From an uncultured virus (IMG/VR IMGVR_UViG_3300042540_000681) (taxonomy: Duplodnaviria > Heunggongvirae > Uroviricota > Caudoviricetes): a stretch of 20,000 bases of DNA. The translations under genes were made by a program, and so were the position numbers. Below, piece by piece: positions 10,134-17,249 of the stretch; within the stretch, counting starts at the first letter, position 1, and each line of letters opens with the position of its first letter. The stretch lies in the IMG/VR virus record IMGVR_UViG_3300042540_000681, positions 53,574 through 73,573 of that record. One strand, 5' to 3'. The notes under the pieces were generated by a model. It was not told the origin of the DNA, did not search any database, and saw nothing but the letters and a program-made list of their open reading frames with translations.

Positions 10134-13013
10134 ATGAAAAATAACAAACTTGAAAACTTTCCATCAGTCTACTATGTTTCATTAGAAGAAAGCGTAGATA
10201 GGCAGCAAAATTTAGAGAAGCAGTTTGCCGAATATGGAATTACTCCAAAGGCAGTTATATCCAAAAGATATTCTGAGTCTGATGATGAAATTACCGGAAA
10301 ATTTTTAGACCAAATGAATGGAGGGACAATTGGTTGTGCAGTCTCTCACATTAAGGCAATTCGTAGATGGTACGAAGAAACCGATGAAGATTATGGATTC
10401 TTTTGTGAAGACGATTTAAGTCTTGAAACCATTCAATATTGGGACTTTACATGGGAAGAGTTTATTGAAACAATTCCCGAAGATTCCTTATATGTGCAGT
10501 TACTAGTAATCAGAGATAACTATGAAACATTTGAAATAAGAAAAAAATTATGGGATGATTGGGCGGCAACTGCATATATTCTTACACGAGATTATGCAAA
10601 ACTCTTGATTGATAGCTATTGTCGGGGCGAAAAAAAGTTTCATCTTGAAATTCCCGGTGTTAATAATTATGCAGTTCCTCTGGTTGAAAATATTTTATTT
10701 GAAACAATTAATAAAGGTGGTTCCGTAATTCCTTTATTTGTAGAAGATATCAAGTTTGCTACTACATTTTCCCCAGAGGAAGATGGGGAAGTTGAAAATA
10801 ATCAAAAAAGAGGTCATTATGAGTCAAGAGAAACTGTTCTAAATTATTGGAAAAACAAAGAACAAATGAAATCATTTGCAGTTGAGAAAGTAGAAGAAAA
10901 AGAAGAAGAACCTCAAGATTTTACGATGAATCAGATTGAGTATCTTCTTACACAATATACTAATGACCCAGAAAATGCCGAAAATAATCTCAAAGTGGGT
11001 GCTTGGTATTGGAATCAAAGGCATACTGCACCTGCACTTTCATACTTTTTAAGATGTGCAGAAAGAGCAGAAGATCCAAATCTTGCTTATGAGGCACTAT
11101 TATGGGCTCATTTTTGCTATGAAATGCAAGGAACAAGAGATTTGACTTCCCGTGGTTTACTTCAACATGCAGTATACACCTTACCAAATCGTCCAGAAGC
11201 ATATTATCTTCTTGCTAAGTTTCATAGTAAGAGAGAGCAGTGGACTGATGCTTATATTATAGCAACTCAGGGTTTGAATTTAACAGAAAAGGATTTACCT
11301 CCACTTAAACATGATGTTGGATATCCTGGAACTTATGGTCTTCTGTTTGAAAAAGCAGTTTCTGGTTGGTGGTGGGGTAAAAACGAAGAGTCTGGTTTAA
11401 TCTTTAAGGATTTGTATGAGAACCACGATATGCAAAATGAGTATCGTGGTTCGGTTTTGGACAATCTTAAAAAGTATTTTCCAAGTTATTTGGTTCCGGA
11501 CAATTTTGATTGGGGAGGAACAGATCCAGAATATGCTCAGATGTTTACCAATGAGAATTTTATTGAGAGAACATATGAGAAACATTGTCGTATTAAGACG
11601 GGAGACATTGTAATTGATGCCGGTGCAAACTGCGGTTCATTTACATATTCAATTTTAGGTAAAAATCCCAAGCAAGTATATTGTGTTGAACCTTCCAATA
11701 CTCTTATTCATTCTCTGAAAAAGAATGTTGGGCATGGTCCAGTAACTTTCATTAATAAGGCAATTTCAGACTTTGAAAGTGATAGTGTTGTGATTGCTGA
11801 TAGGGGTGTCTACATCTATGAAAATAATGGAAATGAATATTCCACAACAACATTTAAAAAGATTATTGAAGAAAACAACATTACCCAAGTTGATTTTTTA
11901 AAGATTGATTGTGAAGGTGGAGAGTATTCTATTTTTACGAAAGAAAACTACGATTTTATTATTAAAAATGTCAAGCACTGTGCTGGAGAATGGCACATTA
12001 ATGACCATAAAGATGCAATAGAGAGGTTCATTGAATTCCGAGATTTATATCTCACCAAATGTAACTTACTTCACGTTTATGAAAGAAGCGGTAAGGAAGT
12101 TACCGAACACATCTTTGATGATACCTACCTCTACGGATTCAGAGAATATTGGAAAGATACTTATCTTGGACAGTTTATTATCTACTTTACCTTTAATAAT
12201 TCAACCGAAGATAGTGTAGATGTTGTTGAAGTCAGTGAAAGTGAGAAAATAGACATTATTCTTCAAGGTAAATATACTGAATACACTGATGAGATTATTG
12301 ATGAGTATTTAAGAGTACCTTTTGTAAATAATATAATCGTTTCTTGTTGGGGGGATGATAGGCCCGACCATTATCGCTCACCAAAAGTTAAATATGTTAG
12401 AAGTGTATATCCATTAACTCCGGGAACTTGCAATAAAAATTTACAGATTACAACATCTTTTGCCGGAATTAAACTCTGCGAAACAAAGTTTTCTGTAAAG
12501 ATGAGATCCGATCAAAAATATAATTACAATAGTATGATGAGTATGTATGAATTTTTTATGAAAAATCATACAAATGATAATATTTTTGTTGCAGGAATGT
12601 TTCCTTCATTACTTTTTCATCCAAGAGATCACATTTATTGGGGAGAAACAAAGGATCTTTATTGCTTGTTTGATATTCCTTTGGAGTATAATAGTCTTAT
12701 TGATAAAGTTCGTATTGGAAAATATGAACTTGCAGAATATTCAAACTATTTGACACGACCTGAGACTTATATTGGAGCACATTACTGTGCTAAATTTGAT
12801 GACTGTGTTAAGAAAATGCTGATTGAACCTGAGAAATACCTTTATGATGATGCAATTAATTGGCAATATGCTAAGGATTTTAGTGATAGAATAACTCCTT
12901 TAATTTTTAAATCTTTTTCAAGAAAATGTATAGATTTTGATTGGACCTGCAAACCGGGATTTACAATTCAATCATATCTGGATGTCTGTTCTTGGCACGA
13001 AGATGGTTTTTAA
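10134..13013 (+). CDS. Multidomain protein: GT25-like + TPR + FkbM methyltransferase + WavE-like domain
   Basis: VYYVSLEES.DRQ, GCAVSHIKAI and FCEDDL (GT25-like). AYEALL and PNRPEAYYLLA (TPR). VIDAGANCG, VEP and FLKIDCEGGE (FkbM). IDIILQG, NKNLQITTS..G, KMRSD and FHPRDHIYWG (WavE-like). Confidence 0.8.
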   Translation: MKNNKLENFPSVYYVSLEESVDRQQNLEKQFAEYGITPKAVISKRYSESDDEITGKFLDQMNGGTIGCAVSHIKAIRRWYEETDEDYGFFCEDDLSLETIQYWDFTWEEFIETIPEDSLYVQLLVIRDNYETFEIRKKLWDDWAATAYILTRDYAKLLIDSYCRGEKKFHLEIPGVNNYAVPLVENILFETINKGGSVIPLFVEDIKFATTFSPEEDGEVENNQKRGHYESRETVLNYWKNKEQMKSFAVEKVEEKEEEPQDFTMNQIEYLLTQYTNDPENAENNLKVGAWYWNQRHTAPALSYFLRCAERAEDPNLAYEALLWAHFCYEMQGTRDLTSRGLLQHAVYTLPNRPEAYYLLAKFHSKREQWTDAYIIATQGLNLTEKDLPPLKHDVGYPGTYGLLFEKAVSGWWWGKNEESGLIFKDLYENHDMQNEYRGSVLDNLKKYFPSYLVPDNFDWGGTDPEYAQMFTNENFIERTYEKHCRIKTGDIVIDAGANCGSFTYSILGKNPKQVYCVEPSNTLIHSLKKNVGHGPVTFINKAISDFESDSVVIADRGVYIYENNGNEYSTTTFKKIIEENNITQVDFLKIDCEGGEYSIFTKENYDFIIKNVKHCAGEWHINDHKDAIERFIEFRDLYLTKCNLLHVYERSGKEVTEHIFDDTYLYGFREYWKDTYLGQFIIYFTFNNSTEDSVDVVEVSESEKIDIILQGKYTEYTDEIIDEYLRVPFVNNIIVSCWGDDRPDHYRSPKVKYVRSVYPLTPGTCNKNLQITTSFAGIKLCETKFSVKMRSDQKYNYNSMMSMYEFFMKNHTNDNIFVAGMFPSLLFHPRDHIYWGETKDLYCLFDIPLEYNSLIDKVRIGKYELAEYSNYLTRPETYIGAHYCAKFDDCVKKMLIEPEKYLYDDAINWQYAKDFSDRITPLIFKSFSRKCIDFDWTCKPGFTIQSYLDVCSWHEDGF

Positions 13014-13768: not shown

Positions 13769-14350
13769 ATGACAGCGACAAAGGCAAAAGCAAAACCAAA
13801 AACAACCGCCTCAGTAAACGAAGATTTACCGGCAAATCCTTTTGTATTTGAGATTTTAAATCTTGTATCCAAGCAGAGGACCAACATTAAAAAAGTTGAG
13901 ATTCTGAAAAAATATGCAGATCCATCACTCAAAGCAATTTTTATTTGGAACTTTGATGAGAGCGTAATATCTGCTCTTCCAGAAGGAATTGTTCCATACT
14001 CAAGTGTTGGGGAGCAAAATTCATTCAGCGGAACTCTAAGTGAAAAAATAGAAGATGCCGTGGGTAAAATGAGTGAAATGGGTTCTAATTCACTTGGTTC
14101 TCAAGACCAAGGATTTTCTTCAATTCGTAAAGAGTACACTAGATTTTATAATTTTGTAAGAGGTGGAAATGATGGACTGAGTTCTCTTCGTAGAGAAACA
14201 ATGTTTATTAATGTACTGGAGGGTCTTCATCCTCTAGAGGCAGAAATTCTATGCCTAGTAAAGGATAAGAAACTTCAAACTAAATATAAGATTACAAAAG
14301 AAATTGTTGCTCAGGCATATCCAGAAATTGTGTGGGGAGGTCGTTCGTGA
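13769..14350 (+). CDS. Conserved T4-like cyanophage hypothetical protein (DUF6433-like)
   Basis: LP.NPFVFEIL, IWNFDESVISALPEG.VPY and RRETMFINVLEGLHPLEAEIL.LVKDK.L. Confidence 0.8.
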   Translation: MTATKAKAKPKTTASVNEDLPANPFVFEILNLVSKQRTNIKKVEILKKYADPSLKAIFIWNFDESVISALPEGIVPYSSVGEQNSFSGTLSEKIEDAVGKMSEMGSNSLGSQDQGFSSIRKEYTRFYNFVRGGNDGLSSLRRETMFINVLEGLHPLEAEILCLVKDKKLQTKYKITKEIVAQAYPEIVWGGRS

Positions 14351-14700
14351 GTAGAGTTCGTAATGTAGAAAGCAATATCACCGAGGAGAAAACTACTATG
14401 GAATGGACTCCGGAAGAAAAGAAAGATATTCCTCCTCGTTATGGGTGTGAGATTCTGATTGAAAACGCATCACTTGCTCAGGTTAAAGATCCTTCTTTTC
14501 CTAATGATGCATATATCGTATCTTATACATTAAAGGGAAACTCTTATATGGATTTGTGTCGTGGTACAAGAGTTAAAATCTTTGATATGTATTATGATAA
14601 GTTCGGCCCAGATGTAGTTACAAAAATTGATTGGGGATATGGAAGAGTGTCTCCTAAGATTTGGGGATACAGAGCACCCGAAAAGAAAAAGAGAAAGTGA
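14347..14700 (+). CDS. Cyanophage-type hypothetical protein
   Basis: Start is GTG 14347 (GTGA overlap) or ATG 14398 (GAGGAG SD). Motifs DLCRG..V.IFD.YYDK and GYG.V.PK.WG. Confidence 0.75.
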   Translation: MSRVRNVESNITEEKTTMEWTPEEKKDIPPRYGCEILIENASLAQVKDPSFPNDAYIVSYTLKGNSYMDLCRGTRVKIFDMYYDKFGPDVVTKIDWGYGRVSPKIWGYRAPEKKKRK

Positions 14701-14782
14701 TTTCCCATATCGGGCAAAAAAATTCCCCCAAAATTTTTGCTCCTTAAGGTTTTTAAAACAGTAGCGTACTGATACATTTTTA

Positions 14783-14796
14783 GTATCGGTTGCTAC
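14783..14796 (+). promoter_or_regulatory. NtcA-type binding site GTA-N8-TAC
   Basis: GTATCGGTTGCTAC matches the established NtcA consensus and overlaps the -35 of the promoter below. Confidence 0.65.
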
Positions 14797-14818
14797 TTTT
14801 TTGATTTTGTGGTAATAT
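14790..14818 (+). promoter_or_regulatory. Sigma70-type promoter for the riboswitch / micro-ORF unit
   Basis: TTGCTA (14790-14795), 17 nt, TAATAT (14813-14818). The predicted TSS of about 14825 sits just before the aptamer. Confidence 0.6.
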
Positions 14819-14825
14819 ATATTGT

Positions 14826-14927
14826 ATCGTTCATCTGGAATAATCCAGACGGAAGTAAGCCGACGCGGAACGGATCGTTCATTCGCTATTCGCAAATAGC
14901 GAACGCAAACGCCGACTGAAGGAACGC
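14826..14927 (+). ncRNA. Glutamine riboswitch-like leader (glnA-motif class), doubled or nested aptamer
   Basis: ATCGTTCA, P2 hairpin TCTGGA/TCCAGA, CGGAAGTAAG ... CTGAAGGAACGC are glnA-motif hallmarks (P1 CGTTC/GAACG, E-loop AGTA/GAA). A second ATCGTTCA and a 9-bp hairpin lie inside. Located upstream of a YRGV peptide gene. Confidence 0.8.
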
Positions 14928-14958
14928 TCTTTAACCTAAAAACTAAGGAGAAAACCTA

Positions 14959-15093
14959 ATGTCACAAGTCGTATATCGTGGTGTCTCTTATGACACCGAA
15001 GTTCGTCGCCAGCAACAACAGCAGGCGCAACAGCAACCCCAACAGTATAATGAGACTTATCGTGGGGTTAAGTTTGTAAAGGAGGCGAAGTGA
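14959..15093 (+). CDS. DUF4278-like YRGV peptide, 44 aa (MSQVVYRGVSYDTEVRRQQQQQAQQQPQQYNETYRGVKFVKEAK); not in ORF track
   Basis: AAGGAG SD at 14945-14950. Two YRGV motifs, typical of the peptides found downstream of glutamine riboswitches. Confidence 0.85.
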   Translation: MSQVVYRGVSYDTEVRRQQQQQAQQQPQQYNETYRGVKFVKEAK

Positions 15094-15191
15094 TGAAAAA
15101 ACTCAACTTCCTACAACTTATCAAAGAACAAAAACAAAAAGAACAGCGTCGTCATTTAGCACAATTAGCACAACTAATCGGAGCAAAATAA
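15093..15191 (+). CDS. Micro-ORF, 32 aa (MKKLNFLQLIKEQKQKEQRRHLAQLAQLIGAK)
   Basis: TGATG overlap with the upstream stop, AAGGAGG SD inside the upstream ORF, basic helical sequence. Confidence 0.7.
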   Translation: MKKLNFLQLIKEQKQKEQRRHLAQLAQLIGAK

Positions 15192-15277
15192 TGGCAAATC
15201 TCATAGTCTCAATGAGTGCCGGAATAGTTCTTTTGACTATTATTTTATCAATGTATATTCAGTGGCTTTATAAGTGA
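15191..15277 (+). CDS. Micro-ORF, 28 aa single transmembrane peptide (MANLIVSMSAGIVLLTIILSMYIQWLYK)
   Basis: TAATG overlap, GGAG SD, and a stop just before the terminator. Confidence 0.6.
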   Translation: MANLIVSMSAGIVLLTIILSMYIQWLYK

Positions 15278-15286
15278 TATTTTTCT

Positions 15287-15318
15287 AAAGAGAGGATTGA
15301 CAAGTCCTCTCTTTTTTT
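15287..15318 (+). terminator. Rho-independent terminator
   Basis: Stem AAAGAGAGGA (15287-15296) / TCCTCTCTTT (15305-15314), running into a T7 tract (15312-15318). Confidence 0.8.
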
Positions 15319-15325
15319 GTATAAT
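15297..15325 (+). promoter_or_regulatory. Perfect consensus sigma70 (early-type) promoter
   Basis: TTGACA (15297-15302), 17 nt, TATAAT (15320-15325). Confidence 0.85.
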
Positions 15326-15346
15326 CAAAACAGAATATTAATCTAA

Positions 15347-15490
15347 ATGGATAAGGACAAACTTAAATTAATTATTCGGAATATGGAACTGCTCTTGGAC
15401 GCACTCAAGGCAGAAGTATATCCAGATACTCAGCAATATAAGTATGATGATATTCGTCCAGAAGAAGTTGACTATGATGAGGTTTTTTAA
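15347..15490 (+). CDS. Small hypothetical protein, 47 aa (MDKDKLKLIIRNMELLLDALKAEVYPD...DYDEVF); not in ORF track
   Basis: First ORF after the consensus promoter. Resembles the small gene upstream of thyX in T4-like cyanophages. Confidence 0.75.
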   Translation: MDKDKLKLIIRNMELLLDALKAEVYPDTQQYKYDDIRPEEVDYDEVF

Positions 15491-15493
15491 CTA

Positions 15494-15658
15494 ATGTCTT
15501 TAAGAGCAAAAAAACTTGTAAAATTGTTGGAAAGATTGATTAGGCAGGACCACCTATATTCCGATGAACAACTTAAGCAAATGAAATCACAACTGCGAGT
15601 TGTAAAAGAAGAACTTGCGGAACTAGAAGCAAAAACATCAAAAGGATTTGGAAAATGA
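15494..15658 (+). CDS. Small coiled-coil hypothetical protein, 54 aa (MSLRAKKLVKLLERLIRQDHLYS...TSKGFGK); not in ORF track
   Basis: GAGG upstream, ATGA overlap with thyX, C-terminal KGFG motif. Confidence 0.75.
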   Translation: MSLRAKKLVKLLERLIRQDHLYSDEQLKQMKSQLRVVKEELAELEAKTSKGFGK

Positions 15659-16410
15659 AACCAATTAAAGCAAAAGACCTTCTTGAACTTGACCAACATA
15701 TGAAAGTTGTGATGCTTCGTCAGACACAACTTCCTCAAACTCTGGTTTATCAGGGAGGTAAGAATGATTATAGTGAAGACCCCATTCATACTAAGTTTCC
15801 TCCAAGTGAGAAGGACTGTGGTAAGTGGGTGATTGAACAACTCCTGGCAAATGAAAGAGGGCACTGGGGACCGCTGGAGCACCCTGCCATTTCTCTGGAC
15901 TGTGTTGGATTCGTTCATAATGTCATCGTACAGGCACGAACTCATCGTGTTGGTGTAAGTTTTGATGTTCAGTCGCAGCGTTATACCGGTCGTCGTGTAC
16001 TTAAAGTTGCCAAGGGTGAACTGAAACCTGAAGAAGTTTATTATGTGCGTCCAGAAGGTCTCTACCTGGACCGTAAAGGGCACAAGTATGAGTGGACTAG
16101 GGAAGACTACGAAAGGCAGTTAAAGTTCTGTCTGGCAGCATCTGAGAGGTATGCTGAGGGTTACGAACAGCGTGGTATGGCAGAGGAACATCTCCGTGAT
16201 TATCTTCCTCAGAATATCCGCCAGAACTTTGTAGTTTCATTCTCTCTTCGTGCCGCACTTCACTTTCTTGACCTTCGTGCTAAACTGGATGCTCAGGTAG
16301 AAATTCAGGCTCTCTGTGAAGGAATGGTTCCTGTAATGAAAGAATGGGTTCCTGAAATCTTCAGTTATTATGAGGAAAAGAGGCTTAGAAAAGCAAAACT
16401 TTCACCTTAA
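15655..16410 (+). CDS. thyX: FAD-dependent thymidylate synthase
   Basis: GHWGPLEH, ThyX motif QARTHRVGVSFDVQSQRY, EHLRDYLPQ and SLRAALHFLDLRAKLDAQVEI. Confidence 0.95.
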   Translation: MKPIKAKDLLELDQHMKVVMLRQTQLPQTLVYQGGKNDYSEDPIHTKFPPSEKDCGKWVIEQLLANERGHWGPLEHPAISLDCVGFVHNVIVQARTHRVGVSFDVQSQRYTGRRVLKVAKGELKPEEVYYVRPEGLYLDRKGHKYEWTREDYERQLKFCLAASERYAEGYEQRGMAEEHLRDYLPQNIRQNFVVSFSLRAALHFLDLRAKLDAQVEIQALCEGMVPVMKEWVPEIFSYYEEKRLRKAKLSP

Positions 16411-16514: not shown

Positions 16515-17249
16515 ATGGTAAATCTTAACAGATTTTATACTTATGCTTATTTGCGTGAAGATAGAACTCCTTATTATGTCGGTAAGGGAAATGGTGATAG
16601 GGTTTATAGAAAAAGATTAAAGGGGGTTAATGCTCCTAAAGATAAATCCAGAATAATCTTCCTGAAACAAAACATAACAGAGGAAGAAGCGTTCAAGCAC
16701 GAGAAGTATATGATTGCTGTCTTTGGTAGACTAGATTTAGGAACTGGTATTCTTCATAATAGAACTGATGGTGGTGAGGGAATGTGTGGATATAAACATT
16801 CTGAGGAGACTAGAAAAAAAATTGGAGAACTTAGTAAAGGTAGAAAATGTAAAGATGAAACTAGAAAAAAATTAAGTAAAGCAAGTAAAAATAGAGTTTG
16901 TAGTGAAGAAACTAGAAAAAAATTAAGTGCATCAAAGACTGGTAAAAATAATCCTATGTATGGAAAAGAAATGAGTGAAGAACATAAACAAAAAATAAGT
17001 GAAGCAAATACGGGAAATAGTTCTTGTTCTTGGAATAGAGGTAAAAAAATGGATCCTTTCAGTGAAGAACATCGAAGAAAACTGAGCGAATATGCAAAAA
17101 ATAGAAGTGAAGAACATAAACAAAAATTAAAAGAAACGGCAAAAGGTAGAACATCTCCTAATAAAGGTAAAAAAATGAGCGAAGAACATAAAAGAAAAAT
17201 AGGTGAAGCAAATAGAAAAAGATGGGAAGAAAGAAAAAAAATAAATTAA
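16515..17249 (+). CDS. Free-standing GIY-YIG-type homing endonuclease with NUMOD3 repeats (Seg-like)
   Basis: FYTYAY..PYYVGKG...R..E..I..N.TDGGEG catalytic domain, then repeated SEETRKK.S / SEEHK.KI units. More A-rich than the flanking genes. Confidence 0.85.
   Translation: MVNLNRFYTYAYLREDRTPYYVGKGNGDRVYRKRLKGVNAPKDKSRIIFLKQNITEEEAFKHEKYMIAVFGRLDLGTGILHNRTDGGEGMCGYKHSEETRKKIGELSKGRKCKDETRKKLSKASKNRVCSEETRKKLSASKTGKNNPMYGKEMSEEHKQKISEANTGNSSCSWNRGKKMDPFSEEHRRKLSEYAKNRSEEHKQKLKETAKGRTSPNKGKKMSEEHKRKIGEANRKRWEERKKIN

Follow-up and report, generated by a model that had tools for sequence, protein, structure and literature searches.

The window analysed here comprises 20,000 nt (positions 53,574 to 73,573 of IMG/VR record IMGVR_UViG_3300042540_000681) and forms the final 20 kb of a viral record of 73.6 kb. 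It is a fragment of a T4-like cyanomyovirus, and the named relatives closest to it are the T4-like cyanomyoviruses S-SRM01, S-CREM1, S-PM2, P-TIM68 and DSL-LC02 of the Kyanoviridae. The window includes a cassette of three tiny open reading frames (ORFs), flanked by terminator-like hairpins, and the 5' leader of this cassette is a putative double glutamine riboswitch element (Table 1). The original prediction had described the leader as two glutamine aptamer units of which the second is nested, in circularly permuted form, within the first. All motifs and coordinates on which it rested are present in the sequence, base for base (14826–14930).

In the nested fold, the outer unit would be a complete glutamine-I (glnA-type) three-way junction that consists of the helices P1, P2 and P3, the junction CGG and an E-loop. 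The E-loop takes one strand from each sequence unit, AGUA (14854–57) from the first and GAA (14918–20) from the second. The place of the P3 loop would be taken by a second, circularly permuted glutamine pocket built from 14867–73, a 3-nt loop, 14876–81, the hairpin P2' and the junction CGC. Within the shared P3, the pairs C14860/A14915 and A14863/C14912 are non-standard.

Table 1. Features of the double glutamine element and of its gene cassette. Positions are those of the window; counts out of 43 refer to the aligned compact homologues described in the text.
Feature	Position	Strand	Remarks
Terminator-like hairpin with T-run	14768..14790	+	Closes the upstream gene 14332–14700; upstream cassette edge; consensus scan only
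Putative extended -10 promoter element, TG-n-TAATAT	14810..14818	+	Read from the sequence
Outer P1, 5' strand, CGUUC	14828..14832	+	Would pair with 14922–14926; invariant, 43/43; paired by RNAalifold with the last GAACG
Outer P2 hairpin, 6 bp, TCTGGA/ATAA/TCCAGA, loop AUAA	14834..14849	+	Predicted fold; pairs covary
Outer junction CGG	14850..14852	+	G14851, equivalent of the triple-forming G22; G14852, linchpin base with partner C14927
E-loop, 5' strand, AAGUA (AGTA at 14854–14857)	14853..14857	+	Unit 1 only; invariant in the alignment
Shared P3, 5' strand, AGCCGACG	14858..14865	+	Pairs with 14917–14910
G-GAACG-G, 'P1 3' strand' of the inner pocket	14867..14873	+	14868–14872 pair with 14880–14876
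Inner P1', CGUUC strand	14876..14880	+	Invariant; 3-nt loop (G14873, A, U) to 14868–14872; hairpin predicted
Inner P2' hairpin, 9 bp, loop CGCA	14882..14903	+	Predicted fold; covaries
Inner junction CGC (linker CGCA, 14904–14907)	14904..14906	+	G14905, equivalent of the triple-forming G18 of glutamine-II; C14906, linchpin base with partner G14873
Shared P3, 3' strand, CGCCGACT = CGCCGACU	14910..14917	+	Alignment pair counts
E-loop, 3' strand, GAAG (GAA at 14918–14920)	14918..14921	+	Unit 2 only
Outer P1, 3' strand, GAACG, and C14927	14922..14927	+	C14927, partner of linchpin base G14852
Anti-Shine–Dalgarno strand CUCUUUA	14927..14933	+	Minimum free energy fold; shares C14927 with the aptamer
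Shine–Dalgarno region UAAGGAG of the first ORF	14944..14950	+	
Presumed regulated gene, 44-aa YRGV-repeat peptide, DUF4278/IF17-like	14959..15093	+	
Two further tiny ORFs, 33 aa (15090–15191) and 28 aa (15191–15277)	15090..15277	+	Each start overlaps the stop before it
Terminator-like hairpin, 12 pairs, with T-run	15287..15314	+	End of the cassette

Existing covariance models describe this element poorly. The whole window gave no Rfam match at the gathering threshold. In E-value mode, the glutamine-I family RF01739 matched 14874–14930 at 33.1 bits and 14826–14872 at 26.9 bits, both below the cut-off of 35 bits; a second pipeline scored 14826–14876 at 36.8 bits against the same family. The first half aligned to RF01739 without the 3' E-loop strand and the second half without AGUA. 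The glutamine-II family RF01704 had no match at E-values of up to 10 in 14700–15050.

Homologues were collected with a pattern in which only AAGTA, GGAACG and CGTTCAT were fixed and the linchpin positions (see below) were left free. The scan found stretches of at least 120 viral contigs which, together with the five named phages and the window, gave 125 doublets. A parsable 3' half is available for 120 of these; four others are cut by contig ends and in one (L063) the 3' half is present but the regular expression failed. Counts out of 120, 125 and 108 in this work cover the matches listed, the named phages and the window, the total number of contigs being at least 120. From these, 43 distinct compact forms were aligned, and pairs were counted for the nested and for the tandem structure. 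The double unit is more than chance, as it recurs in at least 120 viral contigs and in cyanophages S-CREM1, S-PM2, P-TIM68, S-SRM01 and DSL-LC02. A second scan, of genome contigs with a junction pattern, listed almost exclusively chance matches and was uninformative on host genomes. Eight of the 120 listed loci passed a stricter core regular expression (which adds CG-N); three were chance (L165, L196 and L213) and five were real, among them L185, which has both E-loop strands in both units and thus is not of the window's form.

One test of the topology used the linchpin, a pair on which the original prediction had not drawn. In the solved glutamine-I aptamer, the ligand inserts G23 into P1, where it forms a Watson–Crick 'linchpin' pair with C60, the base after GAACG, and G22 forms a base triple (PMC11477058, available sections). 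Glutamine-II has the same pocket with the linchpin reversed (C19:G41) and a CGCA linker (PMC6698751, available sections). As one linchpin base follows 'CG' and the other follows 'GAACG', the pair shows which 5' half belongs to which 3' strand. The window has CGG in unit 1 and CGC in unit 2, with a G after the first GAACG and a C after the last. Nested pairing gives one linchpin per pocket, G14852:C14927 in the outer and C14906:G14873 in the inner, both of which would be stabilized by the ligand; tandem pairing gives G.G and C.C. Across the listed doublets, the nested outer linchpin is a Watson–Crick pair in 120 of 120 cases (82 C:G and 38 G:C), in 108/108 distinct sequences after de-replication and in 43/43 compact forms (CG:30 GC:13). 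The nested inner linchpin is Watson–Crick in 116 of the 120 (114 C:G and 2 G:C), the others being two G.U and two C.A, and the compact forms show GC:40 CG:2 UG:1 (with column 89). Tandem pairing leaves the linchpin Watson–Crick in 81/120 doublets for unit 1 (34 G.G) and 82/120 for unit 2 (36 C.C), and each of the two tandem linchpins is unpaired in 14 of the 43 compact forms.

The E-loop tells the same story. Each unit holds just one of its halves in 124 of the 125 doublets, the exception being L074 with both strands in both units; AGUA was seen in unit 2 of 1/120 doublets and the 3' E-loop strand in unit 1 of 1/125. The 3' strand of the E-loop reads GAAG in 99 and AAAG in 21 of 120 doublets.

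In the alignment of the 43 compact forms, the nested structure leaves 91.3% of cells paired and has a covariation score of 0.150 versus 0.049 in shuffled alignments, with none of 500 shuffles reaching it; 48 cells are changed on both sides versus 13.3 in shuffles, and all slid controls are far lower. Covariation in favour of tandem pairing, looked for in the same way, stays at the shuffled level (0.008 versus 0.009, reached by 284 of 500 shuffles), and the outer pair of the small P3 hairpins that this pairing calls for is formed in just 12/43 and 12/35 cases. Both P2 stems covary clearly in the RNAalifold alignment, e.g. at columns 15/25 of the outer P2 (CG:20 GC:10 UA:7 AU:5) and columns 68/83 of the inner P2' (GC:20 CG:11 UA:10 GU:2). 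Of the 8 pairs of P3, three show changes on both sides. Its first pair is AU:32 GC:9 GU:1, and the closing pair, which changed more than 20 times on a noisy 94-row tree, occurs in three Watson–Crick forms (GC:13 UA:12 AU:10). The P3 variant GGACGG/CCGCCC, found in eight alignment rows, is complementary between the units and not self-complementary. Run without a supplied structure, RNAalifold returned the outer P1 and P2, the inner GAACG/CGUUC hairpin and the inner P2', which is the nested topology, and the nearest-neighbour energy is -24.4 kcal/mol for the nested versus -20.1 kcal/mol for the tandem fold. Thus, covariation, linchpin counts and the split of the E-loop support the nested pairing proposed originally and disfavour the tandem reading, and the predicted shared P3 with its two A/C mismatches and the circularly permuted inner junction pass the covariation test.

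As a control, a pattern requiring the full GAAG in the first unit was used to collect doublets in which both units are complete. Of the 16 distinct doublets found, 11 are true tandems, in which each P3 is a self-pairing hairpin of 3–4 bp and complementarity between the units is low. Real tandem glutamine aptamers therefore look unlike the window's form. The true tandems (L250–L294; about 11 distinct viral contigs) precede a small gene of an unrelated kind (MTKYQ...). Their contigs are marine and not from cyanophages, and perhaps belong to the pelagiphage or Melnitz-like group discussed in PMC9004378. In the remaining five control doublets, the 8-nt P3 strands do not self-pair and form 6/8 pairs between the units. 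Viral contigs L248, L258, L272, L290, L291 and L295 hold such symmetric, interlocked doublets, with AAGUA and GAAG in both units, whose 8-nt P3 strands pair with each other at 6/8 positions and not with themselves, so that two E-loops may surround a single shared helix; the L272 type has CGA as its inner junction, giving an A.C linchpin. The window's form could have arisen from a symmetric design of this kind, with two E-loops, by loss of the inner E-loop.

Several observations weigh against the nested interpretation. All of the homologues were gathered with a pattern that itself demands the unit junction, and they are kin: on a rough tree of 94 downstream flanks (260 nt), the outer linchpin changed 9 times, with just 4 changes on supported branches, all 4 of them concerted (sign test p = 0.125). 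Both P1 helices are invariant, and 10 of the 20 tested pairs never vary among the 43 compact forms. With P1 itself uninformative, we infer the pairing of 14828–32 with 14922–26 from RNAalifold and from the adjoining linchpin, E-loop and P3. The shared P3 is just 77.2% paired and was not predicted by RNAalifold, and its two conserved non-standard positions, mostly C/A and A/C, are unpaired in 42/43 and 27/35 cells. The folding energy is ordinary (z = -1.31 for 14826–14930, with 21 of 200 shuffles folding equally well); z values of -1.31 and -2.41 are not persuasive alone. The inner pocket has no E-loop, and its linchpin lies within a 3-nt hairpin loop. Finally, the larger clade, with a C:G outer linchpin, has a different and less clear expression platform.

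By residue-to-residue comparison, the inner unit keeps every residue of the glutamine-II pocket in circularly permuted order and without an E-loop. Positions 14876–80, 14904–06 and 14867–73 would be the equivalents of glutamine-II C1–C5, C17-G18-C19 and G35–G41, with G14867 corresponding to G35 and G14873 serving as the inner linchpin partner (residue roles from the available sections of PMC6698751). The inner CGUUCA, ACG and G-GAACG, as well as CGGAACG in the region of the inner P1 3' strand, are invariant in 43/43 compact forms, and the loop that joins the inner GAACG and CGUUC is at least 3 nt long in 125/125 doublets. The inner unit thus shares with glutamine-II (Downstream-peptide) RNAs the elements CGUUCA, hairpin, CGCA and G-GAACG-G, a C:G linchpin and the lack of an E-loop; in particular, the likeness of its CGCA linker, pointed out in the original prediction, agrees with the sequence printed in the available part of PMC6698751. 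Unlike in glutamine-II, where the order is CGUUC...CGC...GAACG, the inner GAACG (14868–72) precedes CGUUC (14876–80), the H-type pseudoknot with a downstream P2 is absent and the pocket is closed by the P3 of another aptamer. The inner unit resembles the glutamine-II pocket but is not a member of RF01704. Since each sequence unit lacks one E-loop strand, neither is a complete aptamer that could fold alone.

The conserved pocket residues and the DUF4278-type gene downstream suggest that the element binds L-glutamine and controls that gene. We consider it probable that 14826–14950 forms one composite nested glutamine riboswitch, a translational ON switch at the 5' end of a small cyanophage transcript. 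In the mechanism that we propose, C14927 would have two roles, as the partner of the outer linchpin and as the first base of the anti-Shine–Dalgarno strand CUCUUUA that pairs with UAAGGAG. Glutamine in the outer pocket would capture C14927 and weaken the anti-Shine–Dalgarno helix, which would allow translation of the DUF4278/IF17-like peptide and of the two coupled ORFs. The hairpin between the two strands is part of the minimum free energy fold in the window and is found in 29 of the 34 distinct tails of the clade with a G:C outer linchpin. The same competition between linchpin and Shine–Dalgarno pairing has been proposed for Synechocystis gifB, and both glutamine classes have been shown to be ON switches (Klahn et al., PMC6212724, available sections). 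With C14927 in both structures and the gifB precedent, the element is read as a likely translational ON switch. In members of the C:G clade (e.g. L008, L009 and L022), the base after the last GAACG and the GG(G) that follows pair with a nearby CCC and not with the Shine–Dalgarno sequence.

The inner pocket may also bind glutamine and stabilize the outer P3 and E-loop, and would then support the outer pocket through the shared P3. A two-site riboswitch of new architecture, in which each pocket binds glutamine and coupling by way of the shared helix and the E-loop lets the one expression platform give a steeper (cooperative) response to host nitrogen, is a possibility that we put forward tentatively. 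If this is true, the hairpins that in some relatives (see below) close around small genes would make sensing and translation compete on one RNA.

Alternatively, the element could have a single working sensor, the outer glutamine-I aptamer, with the inner unit being a former aptamer that serves as a rigid, ligand-free cap and holds the P3 strands together. The loss of both E-loop strands from the inner unit, the position of its linchpin base in a 3-nt loop and the C.A combination at this linchpin in 2 of the 120 listed doublets would all fit a mere cap, and part of the conservation might be explained by the inner 3' half of relatives being read also as codons (..DAKAD-stop). However, the inner CGUUCA, ACG and G-GAACG are invariant even in the compact forms that have no embedded ORF, the inner linchpin covaries, and symmetric relatives retain the full E-loop of the inner unit; a cap would not need the exact residues of the glutamine-II pocket. 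We therefore regard a single sensor as unlikely. Partner swapping, in which a tandem-like fold of the ligand-free or early co-transcriptional RNA would exchange with the nested, ligand-bound fold as the regulatory step, draws on the identity of the four P1 strands, which makes both pairings possible, on the early transcription of unit 1, which could pair with the first GAACG while the remainder is still to be made, and on the energy difference of only ~4 kcal/mol between the two folds in the nearest-neighbour model. Nevertheless, no tandem-specific pair is supported by covariation, the local GAACG-loop-CGUUC hairpin should win fast once made, and the anti-Shine–Dalgarno helix already offers a simple alternative state, which leaves this exchange very improbable.

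Two independent tandem glutamine-I aptamers, with P1 helices 14828–32/14868–72 and 14876–80/14922–26 and tiny AG[CCGA]CU hairpins as P3, are hardly credible in the window. In their favour, Weinberg et al. (2010) aligned each half of S-PM2 and P-SSM2 as a glnA RNA of its own, in which P3 has two pairs (supplement file 5, PMC2864571), Sherlock et al. (2022) treat doublets (157) and triplets (4) as pseudo-cooperative tandem systems (PMC9481103), Rfam aligns each half to RF01739 and the identical P1 strands make such pairing chemically possible. Against them, each unit would lack half of its E-loop, the linchpins, mini-P3 pairs and covariation go against it as described above, the GGACGG and CCGCCC variants are unable to form the small hairpins, and true tandems in other phage contigs have complete units with a hairpin P3.

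The proposed composite nested riboswitch can be set beside the known systems. The outer unit has the junction CG(G/C) with a linchpin pair, the P2, the AGUA/GAA E-loop and the P3 of glutamine-I (RF01739), together with a predicted CGUUC/GAACG P1, e.g. as in the Synechocystis gifB/IF17 leader (PMC6212724 and PMC11477058, available sections), and, like that leader, the element stands before a DUF4278-type gene and has a 3' tail that can pair with the ribosome binding site. Unlike in glutamine-I, P3 is not a hairpin, as a gap of 44 nt, bridged by the second glutamine pocket, separates its strands. In the scan of the window both halves score below the Rfam cut-off, with 36.8 bits for 14826–14876 from the second pipeline. 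The tandem glutamine-I doublets (Sherlock et al., 2022, in the available part of PMC9481103; L250–L294) likewise place two units within ~100 nt before one gene. In contrast to those independent, 'pseudo-cooperative' switches, the units of the window share the E-loop, P3 and one expression platform. Glycine aptamers in tandem riboswitches lie side by side and dock through tertiary contacts, whereas the second core of the window sits, in permuted form, inside a helix of the first. The tandem glycine riboswitch, which likewise combines two cores for the same amino acid, RNA–RNA contacts and one expression platform (Table 1 of PMC9481103), provides a precedent for cooperative or mutually stabilizing aptamers.

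The main text of Sherlock et al. (2022; PMC9481103) uses neither 'nested' nor 'circular'. In the paper on S-CREM1, the 99-nt copy of that phage is recorded as a single glnA element, with no remark on its structure. We found no description of a nested, permuted or interlocked glutamine riboswitch in the literature covered, which left out Ames and Breaker (2011) and Ren et al. (2015). Structurally, the element is a new version of a riboswitch class that is already known; it is frequent in cyanophages, and current models describe it badly. Reviews list glutamine riboswitch doublets as tandem switches that act independently. If the common cyanophage form is indeed one nested two-pocket RNA, the catalogue and the Rfam model mis-describe it, and routine scans miss or split it. 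It would also be a natural example of one aptamer placed, in circularly permuted form, within a helix of another, with the coupling of the sites directly testable in an RNA of ~100 nt, and would show widespread marine and freshwater cyanophages reading host nitrogen status to time the expression of tiny IF17-like peptides.

Some relatives carry much longer hairpins that contain genes. In 60 of the 61 listed loci with a long inner hairpin (e.g. L001 483–650, L005 338–490, L014, L016 and L039), the inner P2' encloses a real-looking gene of 49–69 codons with two conserved Cys, whose ATG lies 3–5 nt after the inner CGTTCA. In 56 of these 60, the last codons (..DAKAD) and the TGA stop are the riboswitch's own CGCAAA-P3-UGAAG. 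Neither PHROGs nor the records give a function for the encoded protein. Likewise, in 23/23 listed loci with a long outer hairpin (e.g. L006, L017, L036, L037 and L092), the outer P2 can enclose a gene of 59–73 codons with two Cys and, in some cases, a signal-peptide-like start. These genes begin 4–7 nt after the outer CGTTCA and stop in the 3' strand of P2 or at the TAA of AAGUAA; around them, the foot of the P2 stem is retained and shows covariation (TCCAAT/ATTGGA, TCCTAT/ATAGGA, TCTTATG/CATAAGA).

In the cassette, the 44-aa product of the first ORF matches phrog_5049 well (E = 7.9e-14) and Pfam DUF4278 weakly, at E = 8.7e-4 and 20.1 bits (cut-off 25.3). This domain belongs to the glutamine synthetase inactivating factor IF17 and marks the usual class of genes found 3' of glutamine riboswitches (PMC6212724, available sections). 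The 33-aa ORF has a weak match to phrog_545 (E = 0.0051). As their starts overlap the preceding stops, the 33-aa and 28-aa ORFs are probably translationally coupled. From the putative -10 element, the transcript would start at ~14825–14826, immediately 5' of P1; TATAAT-like hexamers are also found in relatives, 6–8 nt 5' of (A)CGTTCA, and the putative -10 at 14810–14818 is absent from the sigma-70 scan listing of the window.

Lake-water metatranscriptome contigs from three runs (X15–X17) span 14846/14850 to 15247/15265, i.e. the riboswitch and the three small ORFs. No RNA contig from these runs covers 14636–14839 or 15282–15500, a gap that in itself proves nothing. This coverage fits a short transcript from ~14826 to the terminator, a weak hint given that contigs cannot show ends and that DNA carry-over is possible. 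Relatives whose inner or outer hairpin contains a gene occur in these runs as well; compared with the window, they show 138 additional letters at a joint at 14882/14903, and loose ends at positions 14848 and 14882.

The neighbouring genes in the window encode a glycosyltransferase/FkbM/WavE protein, glutaredoxin, a DUF6433 protein, ThyX and a NUMOD3 endonuclease-like product. The upstream terminator hairpin (window 14761–14797) contains a GTA-N8-TAC word similar to an NtcA box (14783–14796), and the hairpin is also present in S-SRM01. The word lies 16 nt before the putative -10, a spacing shorter than that of NtcA-activated promoters, and we do not claim it as an NtcA box. A 959-aa ORF at 10134–13013 joins glycosyltransferase family 25, FkbM methyltransferase and WavE-like domains. 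The thyX gene (15655–16410) adjoins a 244-aa ORF at 16515–17249 with three NUMOD3 motifs (E = 3.7e-29), which looks like a homing-type endonuclease.

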